DNA of 62,823 nt, the filler included, from Chlamydiia bacterium (lineage in GTDB: Bacteria; Chlamydiota; Chlamydiia; Chlamydiales; FEN-1388), in assembly GCA_903848235.1 (NCBI GenBank). It is 9 parts of 9 records of this genome, joined end to end, with 100 filler letters (N's around TTAATTAATTAA, not from the genome) between each part and the next. Parts side by side here need not be neighbours in the genome. Positions count along the whole stretch, not along the records: positions 11,205 to 21,122 come from CAINFV010000268.1; 8 more parts are not named here. The stretch is one strand, 5' to 3'. This document shows, piece by piece, positions 10,574 to 23,956 of this stretch. Position 1 is the first letter of the stretch. Each line of letters begins with the position of its first letter. Position numbers and translations under genes: made by a program. The notes below the pieces were generated by a model. That model saw nothing but the letters and a program-made list of their open reading frames with translations. It made no database searches and was not told where the DNA came from.

Positions 10574-11104
10574 ATGAGGAGAGGGTTAATGAGTTATAGT
10601 TTTTTGAAATTACTCTGTTTTTGCTGCTTTATGCATGCCTCCTTTCTGCAAGCAAGCTGGCCAGCCCCTGCTGCCCCCGTTGACATCTCCGAGACAGGTG
10701 GAGATGCCTCCGTTCCTCAAATTGCCATCGATGCTTCCGGCAAGGCAACAGCAGTTTGGGAGCGACACAATGGAACCAACAATATTATTCAAGCGTCTAC
10801 GCAGACCTCGCCAGGTGTCTGGCCAGATCCTGCTACCTCTGTTGACCTCTCCGCGGCAAGTGGATATGTTTACGATCCTCAAATTGCCATCGATGCTTCC
10901 GGCAAGGCAACAGCAGTATGGTGTCGAGCCAGTGGATCCAACTATATTATCCAAGCGTCTACGCAGACCTCGCCAGGTGTCTGGCCAGATCCTGCTGCCC
11001 CTGTTGACCTCTCCGAGACAGATGGATATGCTTACTACCCTCAAATTGCCATCGATGCTTCCGGCAAGGCAACAGCAGTATGGGAGCGATACAATGGAAC
11101 CAAC
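10574..11104 (+). CDS. Exported repeat protein with 54-aa repeats, probably beta-propeller/BNR-like (3' truncated)
   Basis: Signal peptide; PQIAIDASGKATAVW occurs three times. Confidence 0.75.
10658..11104 (+). repeat. Intragenic 162-bp tandem repeat (at least 2.7 units)
   Basis: caaattgccatcgatgcttccggcaaggcaacagcagt at 10718, 10880 and 11042. Confidence 0.95.
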
Positions 11105-11657: not shown

Positions 11658-11689
11658 CTGGACTTTAGCATTTTTTGGGTACCGAGTTC
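11658..11689. mobile_element. MITE-A end fragment
   Basis: ctggactttagcattttttgggtaccgagttc matches the end of the 61852-62008 element. Confidence 0.85.
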
Positions 11690-11727
11690 TTAAATCATAA
11701 CTGTATGGATGGACCAGCGGTACCTAA

Positions 11728-12991: not shown

Positions 12992-14053
12992 TCACGTTTT
13001 TTCAGGGCCTGTTGAACCTGCTTGAGGAGGTGGGGGTGGAGGCGGAGCTTCTTCTTTTGGTGGTATTTGTGGGATAGGAAGAGGTCCTCGGTCGAGCAGA
13101 TACTGGCAGACAGCGATGCTGGTATTCAGGCCATTGGCAGCAGCAGAAATGCCATTTAAAAACTCCCGAGAGGCTACTTCTCCACAGGCAAAAAGACCGC
13201 TGCTTGGTGTGATGCCAGTATCTGCATAGGTAATAATAGCTCCTGAAGAGTCCATCGACGTTATGCTGTGAACGAGAGAGGATTGAGGAGTCCACTCATC
13301 GGCGAAGATAACCCACGACGCCTCTTGGATGTTCTTCGACCCTTTGTACAAAGATTCTATGAGGGCACGGCTCTTGAGGCTGTTGATAGCTGTTATCCTG
13401 TCGCTTTTTACCCATGTGATGGTGGGAAGCTTCCTGGCAATCCTCTCTTTAAGAGAGCCTGATGACTTCCAGGGGGGCTGGAGAAAGAGATAGAGACGTT
13501 TGATCCGTGCGGCAATGCGAATTGCGCATGTGAGCGTGTATTCGCTGTTGCCAATGAGGATAGCAGTGTCTGAGGAGAGAAGAAAAGATTCATCATACAG
13601 GCGTGAGAGCACCCGCGTTGGCTCCTCTGTCGTAATGACAGTTTTTAAGGGAGGGGGTTCTTTGCCAGTAGCCATGACAATGGCAGGGGCGTGGAAGATC
13701 CCCATGTCTGTTGTAATATGAAAAACACCTTGGTTTTTGGTGACAGCCTTTACGTGTGTGAAGGCGCATATCCCCCCATTCTTTATGAAGTCTTTTCGTA
13801 ATTCCTCGAGTGTTTTCTGCCAGGTCATAGCAGGGTGGCCGGGCCAGTTCGTCACTTGAAGCTTTGGATAGAAAATACCATTTTTTTCTTCATCGCACAC
13901 CAGGGTTGGATATCCTGTCTTTGCGCAGGCTGTAGCGCATGCAAGGCCTGCTGGGCCTCCACCGATAACGATGACGGCGAACGATCGTTGAATTTCTTGG
14001 CCGTAGGCACAGAAAGGTGCCAGAAGAGAGCAGAGAACGATCAAAAGCTTCAT
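12992..14053 (-). CDS. TrxB-like FAD-dependent oxidoreductase with signal peptide and Pro-rich tail
   Basis: VIGGGPAG, VMATG and GLFACGEV motifs; no CxxC; start at ATG 14053 inferred from the reconstructed empty IS site. Confidence 0.75.
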   Translation of the reverse strand: MKLLIVLCSLLAPFCAYGQEIQRSFAVIVIGGGPAGLACATACAKTGYPTLVCDEEKNGIFYPKLQVTNWPGHPAMTWQKTLEELRKDFIKNGGICAFTHVKAVTKNQGVFHITTDMGIFHAPAIVMATGKEPPPLKTVITTEEPTRVLSRLYDESFLLSSDTAILIGNSEYTLTCAIRIAARIKRLYLFLQPPWKSSGSLKERIARKLPTITWVKSDRITAINSLKSRALIESLYKGSKNIQEASWVIFADEWTPQSSLVHSITSMDSSGAIITYADTGITPSSGLFACGEVASREFLNGISAAANGLNTSIAVCQYLLDRGPLPIPQIPPKEEAPPPPPPPQAGSTGPEKT

Positions 14054-14140
14054 CATATTGACGACGCGGAAACCCAATCCTTTAGGTTTGGGAGGAAGCG
14101 TCGCTCCTTAAAATTGTTGTTACTTCTCTAGCGTTTAACT

Positions 14141-15463
14141 TCACATGCCAACCCCAAGCTGTCCAGAGCCAGCACCATCTCGGCAACACAAGTACGAATA
14201 GCCGTCAGCATTATGTTGTTTCCGGCAAAACCTGTGCGAAATCCCCTGCACAACCCCATTTTCAGTGGAAACATTGAAGAATCCGCTTGTCCTGACGGCT
14301 ACTTTTCCGCGGTATATCCCAATTTTTTTTCCAGTGGTTACGTGCGCGACGACAATGTCCCCTGTTTTAAACCCATTGACGACACGAATGGGCATTGCTT
14401 TTGACCTCTGGAAGCCATGCTTATCGACAAGACAAAGCTGCCTGTCTCCGTGCCCTGTTGCTTTGACGCTTTTGGCCCTTAGGCTAGTGAGATGGATTTT
14501 TTCTCCAGTTTCTCCAACGCAAGCAGCATCAATCCAGTGGTCTTTTGGGTATCCCTGGGAGATTCTGTTTTTTTTGGTCCTTCCACCGCTCCAGAATGTT
14601 GAGGGCAGCCCAATCGACTGGACAGCGTTTCCACAAACGAGCCTTGTTGCATTCACTGCCGCTGCGTCTTTAAGAGGCGCCTTGGCGTCCCTGAGAATGC
14701 GCTCTAGTGCCCCCGGTTTTCTTTTGAGGAACTCTCTGACATTTTGGTCCCTCTTTTTCTCGTTGCACTCACGACAGGCGAGCGTCAGATTTGAAATTCT
14801 ATTCGTTCCGCCTTTAGATTTTGGTTGGATATGTTCTACCTCTATCGGTACGTTTTCTTTTCCGCAGTAGGCGCACTTTCTTCCCCATTTTTCCAGAAGG
14901 TATTCTCGAACCTCGTATCCAAGAAGCTCACCTTGTTGGTATTCGACTCCCGACATTTCGGGGTCTTGCATCTTCTGCATATCAAAACGAACGGTCTCGA
15001 CAGCACAAAAAGAGAGGGGGGAAAGTCTCTGAATCCTCTTTGCCCACGTTTCAATATTGTGAACGCGAGACATAAGAGAAGGAGGCAGCCATCCGTCTCT
15101 GCGATGTCGATTCAGAAAGCGTGATTCCCTATGTCTGGTATGTCTGTTACGTCTTGAGCGTCGTACACCTCGTCGTTGCAGCAGCCGGTTTTTAATACTT
15201 TGACCCCGATGCTGAAGATTGATTCCGACTACGACCTTTCTCTTGTTTTTTCCATGAACCACAAGAGCAATGCCTGTCGTTTTACTCCCTGGATCAACCT
15301 TAAGTTCCAGAGGTTGGGTTTCTCCGTCCTCACGGTCCTTTAGAATGATCGTGAATGGGTAGCAGCGAAAAACCGCGGCTTTCTTGCGTTCTAAAAAGAG
15401 GCGTGCTCTCTTTGGAGTGCACGGCATCAAACGCTTTTTCGTACTTGACAAAACAAAAACCAC
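14141..15463 (-). CDS. iscB: IscB RNA-guided endonuclease (OMEGA system, Cas9 ancestor)
   Basis: PLMP-like RLMPC..RAR; RuvC-I VDPGSKTTG; Arg-rich bridge helix RRGVRRSRRNR; RuvC-II VETVRFD; HNH CAYCG..EHIQP..GG.NRISNL..C..CN; RuvC-III HWIDA; C-terminal DGYSY. Confidence 0.96.
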   Translation of the reverse strand: MVFVLSSTKKRLMPCTPKRARLFLERKKAAVFRCYPFTIILKDREDGETQPLELKVDPGSKTTGIALVVHGKNKRKVVVGINLQHRGQSIKNRLLQRRGVRRSRRNRHTRHRESRFLNRHRRDGWLPPSLMSRVHNIETWAKRIQRLSPLSFCAVETVRFDMQKMQDPEMSGVEYQQGELLGYEVREYLLEKWGRKCAYCGKENVPIEVEHIQPKSKGGTNRISNLTLACRECNEKKRDQNVREFLKRKPGALERILRDAKAPLKDAAAVNATRLVCGNAVQSIGLPSTFWSGGRTKKNRISQGYPKDHWIDAACVGETGEKIHLTSLRAKSVKATGHGDRQLCLVDKHGFQRSKAMPIRVVNGFKTGDIVVAHVTTGKKIGIYRGKVAVRTSGFFNVSTENGVVQGISHRFCRKQHNADGYSYLCCRDGAGSGQLGVGM

Positions 15464-15465
15464 AA

Positions 15466-15741
15466 ACGTTTCTCAGTTGCCCTTACGGGCCTGTATAATG
15501 TTCGCCTCGACCTTGTCTTCTGTGGGTTTTTGTAAATATCCTTCAGGGTTTACACTTCGCCCTAGCATGAACATTTACCGCAGAGTCCGGGACTGGCAAC
15601 GCATCCAGAGAGTGCCTATTTCGGCAAGGTTCCCCTTGCCATTCCACAAAATCGTCTCCTCGGATACCCGAGGGGTCTGGTCAACCGCCTTTGGAGATTT
15701 CTCCCTTCAAGCCTCTCCCTTTAGGGAGGGGTGTGGTTGAC
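15466..15741 (-). ncRNA. omegaRNA (HEARO-like) scaffold; guide predicted from the 5' flank, about 15742-15760
   Basis: Minus strand starts GTCAACC..CCCCTCCCTAAAGGGAGAGGCTTG..GGTTGACCAG, followed by several hairpins and a 3' GCCCGTAAGGGC hairpin directly upstream of iscB; 3' boundary approximate. Confidence 0.85.
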
Positions 15742-16778
15742 GTTGACGCTTCCTCAATAAGTGATCGAATAAGATCCGTGTCTGATGGCGGCTGAAGAGG
15801 ATCGTTCGGTAAAGATGGGATGACAGTCAGATGGTCGAAGTTTGGAAAGTCAGGACTGTCGATGGCCGCTAGAATCCTATACGCAATCGCCCCTTCTTCA
15901 AGAGGTGATACGGAAGCCACCGTTGCTACGCGAAGGCCTCTTGGAAAAATACCATCCAGGCCGCTGGTTTCTAAAAGGTCGCCGGGCTTTATCAAGAGGA
16001 TTTTCTGCTCTTGCAGCGACTTCTGTCCTGTCCTCAGATCCCTTTTTGGGCCCTCTTCATCATCGAAGTCGTAGTTAAATCCAACACCTCGAAGTATTGT
16101 AGGCGATGATGGGTATTCAGCACCCTGCAGCTCCCCCTTTGCCAGCCGTAACTCACTGCTCTGAGGGAGGGATTGAAGGAGGCAGTCGAGGAGACGAGAA
16201 AGAGCGGATGCCAGCTCTGGCTTTGGCAGCAGGGAGGGGTTCAGAGCGGTTGCTTTTTGAATCTCCTGAACAGCTTGGACGAGATGTCTGACCTGGCTAT
16301 TCTCACGAACTACTCGTACGGCAGGACGCACATACGGGTCGGAGAGCAGCCGAACGCGGCTTGCCTTTTTCCCAACAAAATCAATGATTCCTACGAGTGA
16401 ATCACGAACCACCACAGGGCAGTTTTTCTGTAAGCGAAAGGAAATGCCAGGCGTCTGTTTTCCAATATCGATCCACACAGTGTTGCTCCACGGTGTGTTT
16501 GCTTGGAAAATGACATTGGCAACTCGATATGGATATCGATTTTCTAGTGCTTCTCCAGAGTCTGTTGCTGCGGCTTGGCGTTCTTCTTCGTGCTCTTCAG
16601 CCCATGAGATGAGGGCGTCTTGCGGTAGACTGGATGGCTGTATCTCTGCATTGCCACTGAGCATCGATGCTACGATGCTTGATGCTCTCGTATGAATAGA
16701 GCGATTTGCCTCTTCGGGAAGCCCGATGAGGGTGGCAGCAAAAAACCATAATGGAAGAAACCATGTCTGTGATGACAT
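15681..16778 (-). CDS. mreC: Rod shape-determining MreC-like protein; last 19 aa supplied by the IS
   Basis: VWIDIG, PVVV..LVG.I..VG...SRVRLLSDP and GDLLETSGLDGIFPRGL.VA.V motifs. Confidence 0.8.
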   Translation of the reverse strand: MSSQTWFLPLWFFAATLIGLPEEANRSIHTRASSIVASMLSGNAEIQPSSLPQDALISWAEEHEEERQAAATDSGEALENRYPYRVANVIFQANTPWSNTVWIDIGKQTPGISFRLQKNCPVVVRDSLVGIIDFVGKKASRVRLLSDPYVRPAVRVVRENSQVRHLVQAVQEIQKATALNPSLLPKPELASALSRLLDCLLQSLPQSSELRLAKGELQGAEYPSSPTILRGVGFNYDFDDEEGPKRDLRTGQKSLQEQKILLIKPGDLLETSGLDGIFPRGLRVATVASVSPLEEGAIAYRILAAIDSPDFPNFDHLTVIPSLPNDPLQPPSDTDLIRSLIEEASTSTTPLPKGRGLKGEISKGG

Positions 16779-16872
16779 TACCCTACCTCGATGTACTCCA
16801 TGGTCGAACACCCGCGAAATGTGGGATTAAGAGTCAAAAGCCACTCTTATTTGTAGAATACATCAAATTCCC

Positions 16873-17113: not shown

Positions 17114-17285
17114 CGTAGCTCTTTTGGCGGCATTGCGATATTCTTTCGCAGGTTATTATGTCGAGTGGGACTGGTGAAGAGTAGGCCCGGTATTCAAAAA
17201 AAAGTTTTTTGCTTTTTTTGATCCGCGTTCTACACTCTCTCAAAGAGCCGTTATAAAGAAGATAGCATCAATTGAAAGGGTGTGT

Positions 17286-18920
17286 ATGACTCAGTCTTTT
17301 GAAGAGTTTACTCCAGAACAAGAAGCCTTGTTAGGCCGTTTTGTCACGAATACGAAAAGCTCTATCTTTGCGCTCTACAACCTTCCAGAGGTTGTCAAAG
17401 GAGCTCTCTTCTCCCGCTATTCTCGGTCTACACTTGGATTGCGGTCCTTGCTTTTACGTGAATTTCTCTTGAATCAAGAGGAGTCTGGCCTGACAGATAT
17501 GCAGGGAGGTGTATCAGAGACCTTCATGAAAGACCAGCTGCTGGCGATAAAAAAGGCACAGAGTTTCTATGACCGTATTTTGGATGGTTATGGCGATGAT
17601 TCGATAGGAGAGCTCGGCGGAGCCCACCTTGCGATAGAAAATGTCTCTATGATCGCTGCAAAAGCCATCGAAGACTGTCGCATTGGTGGCTCTCCTCTTG
17701 AAAAATCTACCCGCTACATCTATTTTGATCAAAAAATTCAGGGGGAATACCTTTTTCATCGGGAAGCTGTCCTCATGACCTCGGCTTGGAAGTCTTTGTA
17801 TGTGAATACCTGTAACATGCTCTTTGACACTTATTCTCGACTCATCCCTCCATTGACAACATACATGACAAACAGATACCCCAAAGAGCCCGAGGTGTCG
17901 ACAAATGCTTATACAGCTGCTGTGCGTGCCAAGGTCCTCGACTGTGTCAGAGGGCTTCTGCCAGCGTCAACGCTGACCAATATAGGTCTTTTTGGCAATG
18001 GCCGGTTTTATGAAGGCCTCCTTCATAAAATGCAGGTACAGAATTTAGCGGAGCTGCGTGAGATCGGGCGTCTTTCCTACGACGAATTGTCAAAGGTCAT
18101 CCCGTCTTTTGTCAGAAGGGCTGACAGCCATCACAAGACCCATGTTCAATATGCTCAATTTCAAGAGGCCATGCGCTCTGAGCTGAAGACATTGGCAGCC
18201 ACCGTTCCTCAAGAGCACAAGACTACTCCCTCCACCTCTTCTGTTCGTCTTATTACGTCCGATCCTGATGCCGTGCTGAAAGTTGCCGCTGCTCTTTTAT
18301 ATTCCGAGACAGATGTTGGGATGTCAGATCTCTTAGAATATTGCCGCACGATGGACCATGAAGAGGTGGCGAAGATTCTCGACGCGGCCGCTGTGTATCG
18401 TGAAACGCGTAGAGATAAATCTCCCCGTGCCTTAGAAAATGCTGTTTTTACCTTCGAAGTGATCACTGACTTCGGGGCGTATCGTGATCTACAACGCCAT
18501 CGCACCCTCACACAAGAGCGGCAGCTGCTCACCTGCAATCTTGGATATTATGTTCCTAAAGAACTATCCGAAAGCGGGGTGGAAAAGGAATATCGTACTG
18601 CCATGGAGGCTGCTAAAGTTGCTTTTGATACTATTTCAAGAGAGCTTCCTGAAGAGGCGCAATATCTGGTGCCAATGGCATATAATATCCGTTGGTACTT
18701 TACCATTAATCTTCGGTCGTTGCAGTGGCTCTTAGAGCTACGCTCGCAAAGTGCTGGGCACATTTCATATCGCCTTGTGGCTCAGCAGATGGCGCGAAGC
18801 GTCATCGATGCGTTTCCTCAATTTGAGCGGTTTTTACGCTTTGTTGATTATGATGGGCATGACATAGGGCGTCTGGATCAAGAAATACGAGCAGAGCAGA
18901 AAAAGATGGCAAGTACGTAG
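17286..18920 (+). CDS. thyX: FAD-dependent thymidylate synthase, two-domain chlamydial type
   Basis: GALFSRYSRS, YGDDSIGELG, EKSTRY and RDLQRHR motifs; about 545 aa. Confidence 0.92.
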   Translation: MTQSFEEFTPEQEALLGRFVTNTKSSIFALYNLPEVVKGALFSRYSRSTLGLRSLLLREFLLNQEESGLTDMQGGVSETFMKDQLLAIKKAQSFYDRILDGYGDDSIGELGGAHLAIENVSMIAAKAIEDCRIGGSPLEKSTRYIYFDQKIQGEYLFHREAVLMTSAWKSLYVNTCNMLFDTYSRLIPPLTTYMTNRYPKEPEVSTNAYTAAVRAKVLDCVRGLLPASTLTNIGLFGNGRFYEGLLHKMQVQNLAELREIGRLSYDELSKVIPSFVRRADSHHKTHVQYAQFQEAMRSELKTLAATVPQEHKTTPSTSSVRLITSDPDAVLKVAAALLYSETDVGMSDLLEYCRTMDHEEVAKILDAAAVYRETRRDKSPRALENAVFTFEVITDFGAYRDLQRHRTLTQERQLLTCNLGYYVPKELSESGVEKEYRTAMEAAKVAFDTISRELPEEAQYLVPMAYNIRWYFTINLRSLQWLLELRSQSAGHISYRLVAQQMARSVIDAFPQFERFLRFVDYDGHDIGRLDQEIRAEQKKMAST

Positions 18921-19036
18921 TCTGATTTTTCGAAAAAGTTAAACCGTTGCACCCATGACAGCAACCTCTCTAAGCGTGATTCAGATTGATAATACCAACT
19001 ATATTTGGTATTATACCATTAATAGGGGATTGGCCT

Positions 19037-19225
19037 ATGCCTATGAGTGGCAAAGAGATGGGGAAGCTTTTTCAGAGAGAAGGTTTTGAGATCATTAAGG
19101 GTCAAGGGAAAGGGTCTCACATAAAACTGAGAAAGGGTTTTATGACGGTCATTGTGCCAAACCATAAGGAATTGAAAAAAGGACTCGAGCACGCCCTTAG
19201 AAAGCAGTTGGAGGAAGTAAAATGA
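19037..19225 (+). CDS. hicA: HicA-family toxin
   Basis: GKGSHIKL..VIVPNHKELKKG. Confidence 0.9.
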   Translation: MPMSGKEMGKLFQREGFEIIKGQGKGSHIKLRKGFMTVIVPNHKELKKGLEHALRKQLEEVK

Positions 19226-19647
19226 AATACCATTTCAAAATCCACAGGGAATCCGGTGGATTCTGGGCTGAGTGCTTGGAGATTCCAGGTTGTATGACCC
19301 AGGGTGATTCGAAAGATGAGCTTTTTGCCAATATGCAGGAGGCGATTAATACATGTCTCGAAGAGCCGGAGGGGGGGGCTTTTTTAGCGCCACTTCCAGA
19401 CGACTCCTACACTCCCTCACGCTCTGTAGTTGAAGTACGTGTGGATCCCGAGATTGCCTTAGGATTTATGGTTAGGCGTCATCGTATACAAGAAGGTATG
19501 ACGCAGAAAGAAGCCGCAAAAAATCTTGGGATGAAGAACATATTTAGTTACCAGAGGCTGGAGCGTCGGTGTAATACAACCGTAGGAATGCTCGGGAAGC
19601 TACTCGTATTGTTCCCATTACTCTCGCTCAATAAAGTGTTTGAATAG
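19222..19647 (+). CDS. hicB: HicB-family antitoxin with C-terminal HTH
   Basis: FWAECLEIPGCMTQGDS.DE...NMQEAI; XRE-type HTH; ATGA overlap with hicA. Confidence 0.9.
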   Translation: MKYHFKIHRESGGFWAECLEIPGCMTQGDSKDELFANMQEAINTCLEEPEGGAFLAPLPDDSYTPSRSVVEVRVDPEIALGFMVRRHRIQEGMTQKEAAKNLGMKNIFSYQRLERRCNTTVGMLGKLLVLFPLLSLNKVFE

Positions 19648-22810: not shown

Positions 22811-22872
22811 GTTGAAGAATTGGGTTTTCGGCTATGGCAAAAACCAATTCTTCAACTAGGTTTGGGTATATA
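22811..22872. mobile_element. Internally deleted MITE-B
   Basis: gttgaagaattgggttttcggctatggcaaaaaccaattcttcaactaggtttgggtata. Confidence 0.8.
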
Positions 22873-22885
22873 GGTAGAAAAGAGG

Positions 22886-23956
22886 CTACGACATCAATGC
22901 CGCCACCCCTGACATCTCATTGACGAGATCTATGGCATAGTCTAGCAGAAGGAAGAACTGCTCTTCGTTTTGAACAAAACGCTCTCCTCGCTGTTCTCTG
23001 AGCTGAACGATTAACTCTACAAGGCCTGTTCCAATATTTTCAGGCTGTATCAGCCCTTGTAGAACTCGCTTCTTCAAAAAATAGGCAGTCAGAAGCGTCC
23101 CTGTTCTTCCAACACCAGCGTGACAATGCACCAGTGTATTTTTTTGGAAAGACATCTCCAGCTTCGACACGAGATATTTAAGAATAGGAAGACTAACGCC
23201 GCAACAGTCTTTCCACCCTCTGTAATGGCACCATTGAATCAGTTGACTTTTTTGTGTAATAAAGTCTTTCACCTCACAAATAAAAGTGCATTCCTCTGGC
23301 GTTTCATCTATTTTATCAACGAGACGTACGATTACACTCCCAAAGACAGACGGAGTCTCTCTTTCCATTGGAGCGTAACTAGATTCCTCAACCGACAAGT
23401 CAATGATGTCGTACCCGCTCTCAATAATAAACCTCCAGAACAGTTCATGTTCACAAGGGATCTGCGAGGCAATAAGCTGTCTAGAACTTATCCCATCAGA
23501 CACATAGTTAGCATGAAGGAAGAAGCCTCCTACCGTCACTGCAGTTCGTCGAGGGCACCGAACGTTGGAAAAAAGAGCCTTCACTTCAGGAAAAGGAAAT
23601 TCGAAGTTACTTTTCAAACATGGAATATCATGAGCTGTTAGCATGGTCATCTCATCTAACGTAGAGACAAGTGCGCGGCGAGCCTCTGGCGCCATAAGTC
23701 GTGTGAAAGAAGGAACGGGAGTATGTACAGCAACTGCAGAAAGCCTCAGATGGGGCACAGAATGCAGCGAAGCAGAAGCAGCTGCCATTGGCGCACCAAC
23801 GAGCGTAGCATCAGCCCGCTGCGAAACACGCTCCTCTAAAAACCTCGCTGCTTCGGACTGATTCTCTGGCACCGGAAGCAATCTATCTGTCTCTAGCGCA
23901 GACAAATCTACAAAATCTCCTGAAAGATCAGGGTCAATAGTTACTTGAAAAGACAT
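22886..23956 (-). CDS. Protein-tyrosine phosphatase (classical PTP fold), candidate effector
   Basis: HANYV, IASQIP, WKD (WPD loop), VHCHAGVGRTG (CX5R) and FVQNEEQF (Q loop). Confidence 0.9.
   Translation of the reverse strand: MSFQVTIDPDLSGDFVDLSALETDRLLPVPENQSEAARFLEERVSQRADATLVGAPMAAASASLHSVPHLRLSAVAVHTPVPSFTRLMAPEARRALVSTLDEMTMLTAHDIPCLKSNFEFPFPEVKALFSNVRCPRRTAVTVGGFFLHANYVSDGISSRQLIASQIPCEHELFWRFIIESGYDIIDLSVEESSYAPMERETPSVFGSVIVRLVDKIDETPEECTFICEVKDFITQKSQLIQWCHYRGWKDCCGVSLPILKYLVSKLEMSFQKNTLVHCHAGVGRTGTLLTAYFLKKRVLQGLIQPENIGTGLVELIVQLREQRGERFVQNEEQFFLLLDYAIDLVNEMSGVAALMS

Follow-up and report, generated by a model that had tools for sequence, protein, structure and literature searches.

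The locus described here raises two questions: what is a predicted RNA-guided nuclease gene doing directly in front of a host start codon, and how could the gene behind it still be translated? It lies on contig C268 of a Chlamydiia bacterium assembly (GCA_903848235.1, here G000; 2.35 Mb, 284 contigs, 93% complete), within a stretch of 62,823 nucleotides, filler included, joined from nine parts of this genome and referred to below as the window. A first-pass annotation had proposed a complete IscB-omegaRNA system in a probable chlamydial host, and the host is indeed chlamydial. Taken as a whole, the locus is very probably a recently mobile, non-autonomous ISC element. Beyond this, we favor, at a rough probability of 55%, the reading that IscB elements with an ATGA target, including the one in the window, are start-codon parasites carrying a portable split ribosome-binding site in their left end. 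The coordinates are collected in Table 1; C and L numbers are our labels for contigs and loci.

The protein is a further member of a described class, useful as an enzyme and unsurprising. As the first-pass annotation had claimed from motifs, the 440-aa open reading frame (ORF) matched RRXRR (PF14239, over 1-174 of 174), HNH and the guided_IscB profile NF040563 (435 bits against a cut-off of 175); its N-terminus reads RLMP rather than PLMP. The residues D57, E156, H309 and D312 of RuvC and H211, N225 and N234 of HNH, which we take to be the catalytic positions, are all present, and across 96 homologous loci the only change at these seven sites, each of them aligned in 82-94 rows, is a single H-to-R. 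We rejected a type II Cas9 or Cas9d identity on scores far below the cut-offs (NF049971, 43.8 against 375 bits; TIGR01865, 23.1 against 100) and on a similarity confined to the HNH region, while the presence of HNH ruled out IsrB. The nearest solved structures are IscBs (TbaIscB 9k30, HfmIscB 9k2z and OgeuIscB 7utn/7xht; E 1e-21 to 1e-37), alike in domain order but distant; since most of the alignments end before the C-terminal domain, the specificity for the target-adjacent motif (TAM) is not transferable from them. The description of the protein as ‘compact’ did not stand, 440 aa being normal within this IscB clade. IscB scored above the cut-off in 29 of the 401 genomes of the phylum surveyed, this one counted in, and the class, already described, is thus common in the phylum. 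The identity is confirmed at the sequence level, and RNA-guided nuclease function is predicted from it.

The boundaries were taken from other copies of the element. All paralogues in the genome align from the second of two tandem GTCAAC motifs, at 15741, ruling out the first GTCAAC as the true end. L070, a 97% copy from a metagenome that is internally deleted, has the same two ends between different flanks, and contigs from public runs diverge at 15741, where X3 and X6 have loose ends, and at 14049-14050. The paralogue ends, L070 and the diverging contigs therefore place the element at 14054-15741, with ATGAA directly beyond it. The extra GTCAAC, with which the host flank ends (15742-15747), repeats the terminal motif of the element and is absent at the other copies; it is either chance or the trace of an earlier event, and owing to this repeat the guide seed could compete for the first stem of the omegaRNA. 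Both ends have subterminal hairpins, with no terminal inverted repeats, no target duplication and a fixed one-sided target motif. The right-end structure is common to 17 credible ends, one additional row (C51) appearing spurious. At the hairpin feet, short DNA guides CAAG and GAAA go with TGAC and TCAT, respectively, presumably in agreement with the pairing of guides and cleavage sites in IS608, and by eye the DNA guides covary with the TTTAT and TTGAT targets of TnpB ends. The left ends on C192, C96, C146, C168 and C282 have an altered first DNA-guide base, yet ATGAA flanks all five; under the pairing rule, as we understand it, such a base would misfit a TCAT target. ATGAA follows nine of the ten IscB-type left ends in this genome, ATGAT follows the tenth, and L070 is also flanked by ATGAA. 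The earlier reading of ATGAA as the flank was thus right as sequence, and it matches the TTCAT TAM given for GstIscB, equal to ATGAA on the iscB strand, by Meers et al. (bioRxiv 10.1101/2023.03.14.532601).

The ATGAA beyond the left end is more than a predicted TAM, and IscB elements with an ATGA target are enriched at host start codons; the first-pass annotation had noted neither this start codon nor the ribosome-binding motif in the element end. In this genome, the ATG of the TAM opens an ORF of at least 70 aa at nine of ten IscB-type left ends, the tenth being C96, which follows a tRNA of the same strand at a distance of 15 nt; at eight of the ten the ORF reaches at least 100 aa. For the relatives, 27 of 34 sites have an ORF of 100 aa or more starting at this ATG (29 of 37 with L112, L152 and L088 restored), compared to 18.5% of all ATGAA sites in our one genome and 27% of those outside its crudely called genes. 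The relatives derive from 98 loci extending to the C-terminus of IscB, of which 41 were parsable; the 57 unparsed loci are, by eye, contig ends, other end types and parser misses. The set of 34 omits two duplicates, the window locus, one open-ended row, two doubtful parses that were both positive (L112 and L152) and a valid negative (L088). Empty sites rebuilt by removing the element were start-like in 18 of 24 cases (null 5.7% and 23%), and eight of these 18 have an ATGA overlap (null 7.7%). Searching five chlamydial genomes by pattern yielded 18 left ends; 11 of the 15 that had not been counted before open an ORF of at least 90 aa. We scanned 40 downstream proteins, and 19 of the 25 with an NCBIfam match aligned from near the profile N-terminus; the products include DnaA, GyrB, S6, PurB, UbiB, LptE, HypD and WrbA. 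The enrichment would be explained by the target motif together with a need for transcription.

Individual sites in other genomes add to this picture as observations. The start codons of rpsF, gyrB and dnaA are occupied by elements or left ends in other chlamydial genomes (L219, G134:C1; L223, G159:C64; and L147, G153:C22, respectively), and the element at the rpsF (S6) site is a gene-less HEARO. Elements at G000:C168 and at L143 (G102) are independent insertions before similar 69-70 aa MerR-like helix-turn-helix genes, and the first bases beyond the TAM are identical at C282 and C168.

The left end of the window element carries a Shine-Dalgarno (SD)-like motif directly 5’ of its outer stem, and this stem ends 7 nt before the host ATG. 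A motif pairing at -5 kcal/mol or better was found just 5’ of the stem in 34 of 37 parsed IscB ends (duplicates, L112 and L152 excluded), compared to 9.5% of random windows, the anti-SD used being generic and possibly different from that of the host, whose 16S tail was not found. Only L155 has a linear canonical SD, and it lacks the upstream motif. The spacer between stem and ATG is 5-11 nt with a mode of 7, and the stem probability exceeds 0.5 in 32 of the 37 ends. Within this genome, all eight scored IscB-type ends carry the SD, as do two C70 ends judged by eye. Two controls bear on the motif. TnpB ends with TTTAT or TTGAT targets, of which 14 were parsed out of 30 loci from the phylum, do not differ in outer stem or loop length, but the SD is present in 1 of 14. 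A second end family in this genome has the same ATGA target and mostly keeps a TTCCT sequence, but carries the SD in none of seven ends; none of the seven opens an ORF of at least 60 aa (2-21 codons), and an eighth end has a non-ATG flank. Four of these seven are close to the end of a contig, and an inward-pointing ORF accompanies two of the four; we infer from orientation only that the four are TnpB elements; the other three are palindromic mini elements. The two controls together indicate that the stem is a general transposase-end chassis, and that the SD tracks the IscB orientation, in which host transcription runs towards the TAM.

The motif, its geometry and the controls suggest that SD and stem form a hairpin-split ribosome-binding site, with a function in translation that is predicted from sequence. 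In the start-codon-parasite reading, to which we give slightly better than even odds on this point as well, the left-end stem would double in the mRNA, looping out about 44 nt and leaving the SD about 7 nt from the ATG. There is precedent in phage T4 genes 25 and 38, fixed phage genes in which, according to a review (PMC3014915), the SD is too far from the AUG (22-27 nt) until an intervening stem-loop reduces the distance to 5-11 nt; PMC7297116 likewise points to gene 25. The IscB left ends have the same geometry, a stem-loop leaving 5-11 nt. The window left end would resemble the T4 sites with differences, as about 50 nt would become about 7, in a transposon end that stands before many host genes. 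By eye, other IscB subfamilies (L033, L034, L057, L078, L079, L100 and L102) have an apparently ordinary linear SD in the spacer, and some of them precede a GTGA target that starts small membrane-protein ORFs.

An omegaRNA precedes iscB. The first-pass annotation had placed a structured non-coding RNA there, and the predicted fold of the 278 nt upstream of the gene outdoes that of 199 of 200 shuffled sequences (z = -2.43). A covariance-model search recovered a full-model match to HEARO (RF02033; 81.8 bits, E 5.8e-17), within which lies an additional hairpin insert of about 23 nt. The Rfam scan at gathering threshold gave just a tRNA in the window, because the HEARO score is 1.2 bits short of the gathering score of 83; the match emerged in E-value mode. 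L070 (97.9 bits) and five paralogues of this genome pass the cut-off. The guide proposed earlier, at the end of mreC, is exact over 20 nt, with its boundary fixed by the paralogues and L070. No target combining this guide with ATGA occurs in the assembly below 5 of 16 mismatches, and a search for self- or cross-targeting by the eight other guides gave 3-4 of 16 mismatches at best. A promoter and terminator scan was uninformative, with three promoter-like sites against 3.9 expected and none on the minus strand.

At the host site, mreC natively ends at a TGA that is part of an ATGA shared with the start of the gene behind it, and in silico removal of the element restores this overlap. With the element in place, MreC gains 19 element-encoded residues (20 codons with the junction codon) and terminates inside the first stem of the omegaRNA; the read-through is 6 codons in many relatives compared to 20 here. 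We considered whether the hairpin loop of the right end is there specifically to stop upstream genes, but do not claim this, since a one-in-three frame coincidence explains it. mreC is the probable source of read-through transcription for the element. In G003, from the same family, no element lies between mreC and an orthologue of the downstream gene, which begins at the corresponding residue, 5 nt beyond the stop codon of mreC; among 20 mreC loci compared, one of them from this genome, G003 is the sole relative with that neighbour in the flank examined.

Relatives of the element are numerous in the genome. Two further iscB copies exist, one frameshifted (C4) and one internally deleted (C146), along with omegaRNA-only mini elements of 355-374 bp on C45, C96, C192 and C168 and three more cut by contig ends. 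Over 237 codons compared between L070 and the window iscB, 20 changes are synonymous and 5 non-synonymous. The element itself lacks tnpA, as the first-pass annotation had stated, but Y1 TnpA fragments do occur in the genome: three exceed the Pfam cut-off, all at contig ends. On C66 and C67 the fragment continues into a similarly built left end whose target is TTTAT; the third is frameshifted. TnpB 3’ fragments are present on nine contigs, and seven TnpB-type ends have the same right-end hairpin as the IscB elements in the opposite orientation. The claim that the element needs TnpA in trans agrees with published ISC/IS605 biology. Given that ISC elements share their ends (PMC4810608) and that one TnpA excises five families (Meers et al.), mobilization in trans is likely by analogy.

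Several fragments of such elements were also noted. The omegaRNA 5’ flank on C169 resembles the 3’ end of the C4 and C146 iscB genes, and C146 and C4 have the 3’ part of a window-type omegaRNA ahead of their left ends, an arrangement that suggests nested or recombined elements. On C57 (~11661-11721) and C197 (~22849-22912) there are palindromes of about 50 bp in which two left-end halves are joined and which ATGA flanks on either side; we take them to be REPIN-like mini elements. Left-end-only remnants, consisting of SD, stem and spacer, occur on C70 (1824 and 433, minus strand) and C282 (4214, minus strand), a group that takes in L233 and L230; they precede the starts of host genes, neither a right end nor an omegaRNA or iscB was found upstream of them, and they may have been kept as ribosome-binding sites. 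Right-end-only remnants of about 45 bp, on C37 (8646, plus strand) and C102 (26323, minus strand), a group that takes in L235 and L236, directly abut an ATGAA gene start, each with GGAG or GAGG at an ordinary SD distance; those on C37 and C102 gave no HEARO match.

We propose the following course of events. A Y1 TnpA from elsewhere in the genome would excise the element and insert it 5’ of ATGAA by way of the two end hairpins. Read-through RNA from mreC would supply a 5’ guide from the host flank and a scaffold from the right end, and IscB with this omegaRNA would cut the empty donor joint after excision, such that the filled site is restored or kept; both steps are modeled on Meers et al. As an assignment to a class, the combination of TnpA in trans and flank-guided cutting by IscB is held with high confidence. 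Since the element needs same-strand host transcription and targets ATGA, the copies that persist would mostly be those on start codons, often at ATGA stop/start overlaps. The transposase-end stem can then probably bring the left-end SD within about 7 nt of the host ATG, so that the downstream gene stays translated; for this step we consider the odds somewhat better than those of the start-codon-parasite reading as a whole.

A number of points weigh against the start-codon-parasite reading or the evidence behind it. The idea that the outer stem evolved for translation is ruled out, as TnpB ends with other targets have it. Various SD-bearing ends open no gene (L071, L111, L132, L215, L218, L225 and C96 among others). 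The significance of the enrichments is overstated because the elements are related, the ATGAA null comes from one genome with crude gene calls, left ends were parsed in only 41 of 98 loci, and, since only ends with a stem could be parsed, the stem probability is in part circular. At the locus itself, the HEARO score lies under its gathering cut-off, no TnpA in the genome reaches the NF033573 cut-off (fragments only), G001 from the same genus has a different gene downstream of mreC, and no empty allele was found at base level: no joint across the element appeared in four contig runs, which gave just a 448-nt internal skip, in X5. Further objections are those on which the chief alternative draws. 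The element could be an ordinary active IscB element that inherited its SD-like motif as a passenger, or keeps it for the structure that the motif can form by pairing with the TTCCT in the loop. Its siting would then merely reflect the ATGA target, the need for upstream transcription and the purging of intragenic insertions, and translation of downstream genes would begin independently of an SD, through re-initiation behind iscB, or at the in-frame ATG that this subtype has directly before the TAM. In only 15 of 35 ends is the motif predicted to be over half unpaired, host SD use is weak (37% of start-like ATGAA sites carry one), the elements have a common ancestry, and a bias towards same-orientation upstream genes is already published by Meers et al. 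However, the motif stays while the adjoining stem sequence varies, and it is missing both from 13 of 14 ends that have the same chassis but a different target and from ends that share the target and retain TTCCT. In L155, the SD has shifted to the canonical position; the SD-less L127, L224 and C149 open ORFs of just 10, 3 and 3 codons. Gene-less mini elements retain the SD. We therefore regard the passenger explanation as possible but doubtful.

It is unlikely that the element is a fixed relic, immobile for want of a functional cognate TnpA and with a nuclease or omegaRNA no longer expressed. The TnpA fragments, one of them frameshifted, the two broken iscB copies, a HEARO score below that of the paralogues and a minus strand without a promoter-like site would fit such a relic, but the iscB ORF is intact with a synonymous excess, a 97% copy occupies a different site, and TnpA and TnpB fragments that stop at contig ends are what collapsed repeats are expected to give. 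Domestication as an RNA-guided regulator, or as a defence system against mreC or foreign DNA, might be suggested by a guide from a cell-shape gene, and we hold it to be very improbable: the nuclease residues and both transposon ends are intact, the assembly has no TAM-bearing target, the G003 site is unfilled and no IscB was found in G001, and no adjacent CRISPR array was noticed, though no formal search was made.

Table 1. Positions of the IscB element, its parts and the adjoining host genes in the window.
Feature	Position	Strand	Remarks
IscB element	14054-15741	minus	1688 bp; non-autonomous IS200/IS605 (ISC) type
iscB	14141..15463	minus	440 aa, GTG start
iscB layout			PLMP-like start, split RuvC, bridge helix, HNH with Cys4, C-terminal domain
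omegaRNA (HEARO) scaffold	15495..15741	minus	RF02033 1-211/211; non-coding sequence on to 15464
Predicted guide	15742..15761	minus	20 nt of host flank at the mreC 3’ end, 5’ of the scaffold; by analogy with Meers et al.
Transposon right end	15708..15741	minus	terminal GTCAAC; hairpin 15731-15712; DNA guide 15711-15708; also the 5’ part of the omegaRNA
Transposon left end	14054..14104	minus	outer stem, TnpA hairpin, DNA guide, 7-nt spacer
SD-like TAAGGAG	14104..14110	minus	50 nt upstream of host ATG, directly 5’ of outer stem; -8.0 kcal/mol with generic anti-SD
Outer stem	14104-14098 paired with 14067-14061	minus	7 bp, encloses 30 nt, probability 0.89
Left-end TnpA hairpin and DNA guide	14092-14073; 14072-14069	minus	inside outer stem
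TAM/target ATGAA	14049..14053	minus	host DNA; start codon and next bases of the downstream gene
mreC (host)	15681..16811	minus	376 aa including read-through into the element
Thioredoxin-reductase-like FAD oxidoreductase (host)	12992..14053	minus	353 aa, begins at the TAM

Elsewhere in the window, an ORF of repeated units of about 50 aa (10574-11104) is interrupted by an N gap, and two small ORFs (18986-19647) resemble a HicA/HicB toxin-antitoxin module as judged from sequence. A 546-aa ThyX (17280-18920) has two Thy1 domains by Pfam, presumably the tandem form of chlamydiae.

According to Kapitonov, Makarova and Koonin (2016, PMC4810608), ISC transposons have an N|ATGA target and a 5’-GT end. 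ISC1-1_MA, ISC2-1_HM and ISC2-1_MS resemble the window element in having IscB as sole gene, 5’-GT and subterminal hairpins; ISC elements also insert 5’ of ATGA without duplication and have ends in common with oppositely oriented TnpB elements, while the host here is chlamydial. In Meers et al., a single TnpA excises five families, and there is a bias to same-strand upstream genes. GstIscB/ISGst5 and the PATEs of Geobacillus stearothermophilus share with the window a right-end scaffold, a flank-derived 5’ guide and a same-orientation upstream gene, and with the genome gene-less omegaRNA mini elements and TnpA in trans; the activity of GstIscB was demonstrated there, whereas the window element is known from sequence. 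The HEARO-IscB enzymes of PMC9755519 are, as here, seldom linked to TnpA; the window RNA matches RF02033 over the full model but differs in its hairpin insert and slightly low score. The main text of PMC4810608 contains none of ‘start codon’, ‘Shine’ or ‘Chlamyd’, and the available preprint text of Meers et al. does not treat downstream start codons or ribosome-binding sites. We found no account of start-codon docking or of an element-borne ribosome-binding site in the main texts consulted, including the 2026 OMEGA review PMC13565253 and PMC9755519, or elsewhere in the literature searched, which excluded most subscription papers and supplements.

The locus provides a predictable ATGA(A) TAM for one more IscB orthologue. 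If the start-codon-parasite reading is true, it would explain why the target or TAM of many Cas9 ancestors reads ATGA, and how an element that depends on read-through avoids polar damage: such elements would sit in operons, take guide and transcription from upstream, and still allow dnaA, gyrB or rpsF to be translated. IStrons use a splicing strategy, to which this would be a protein-free counterpart. The left-end-only remnants between host genes would be domesticated ribosome-binding sites, and the alternative pairing of SD and TTCCT could act as a switch. One sequence would thereby do two jobs, as the DNA end recognized by TnpA and as an initiation structure in mRNA.

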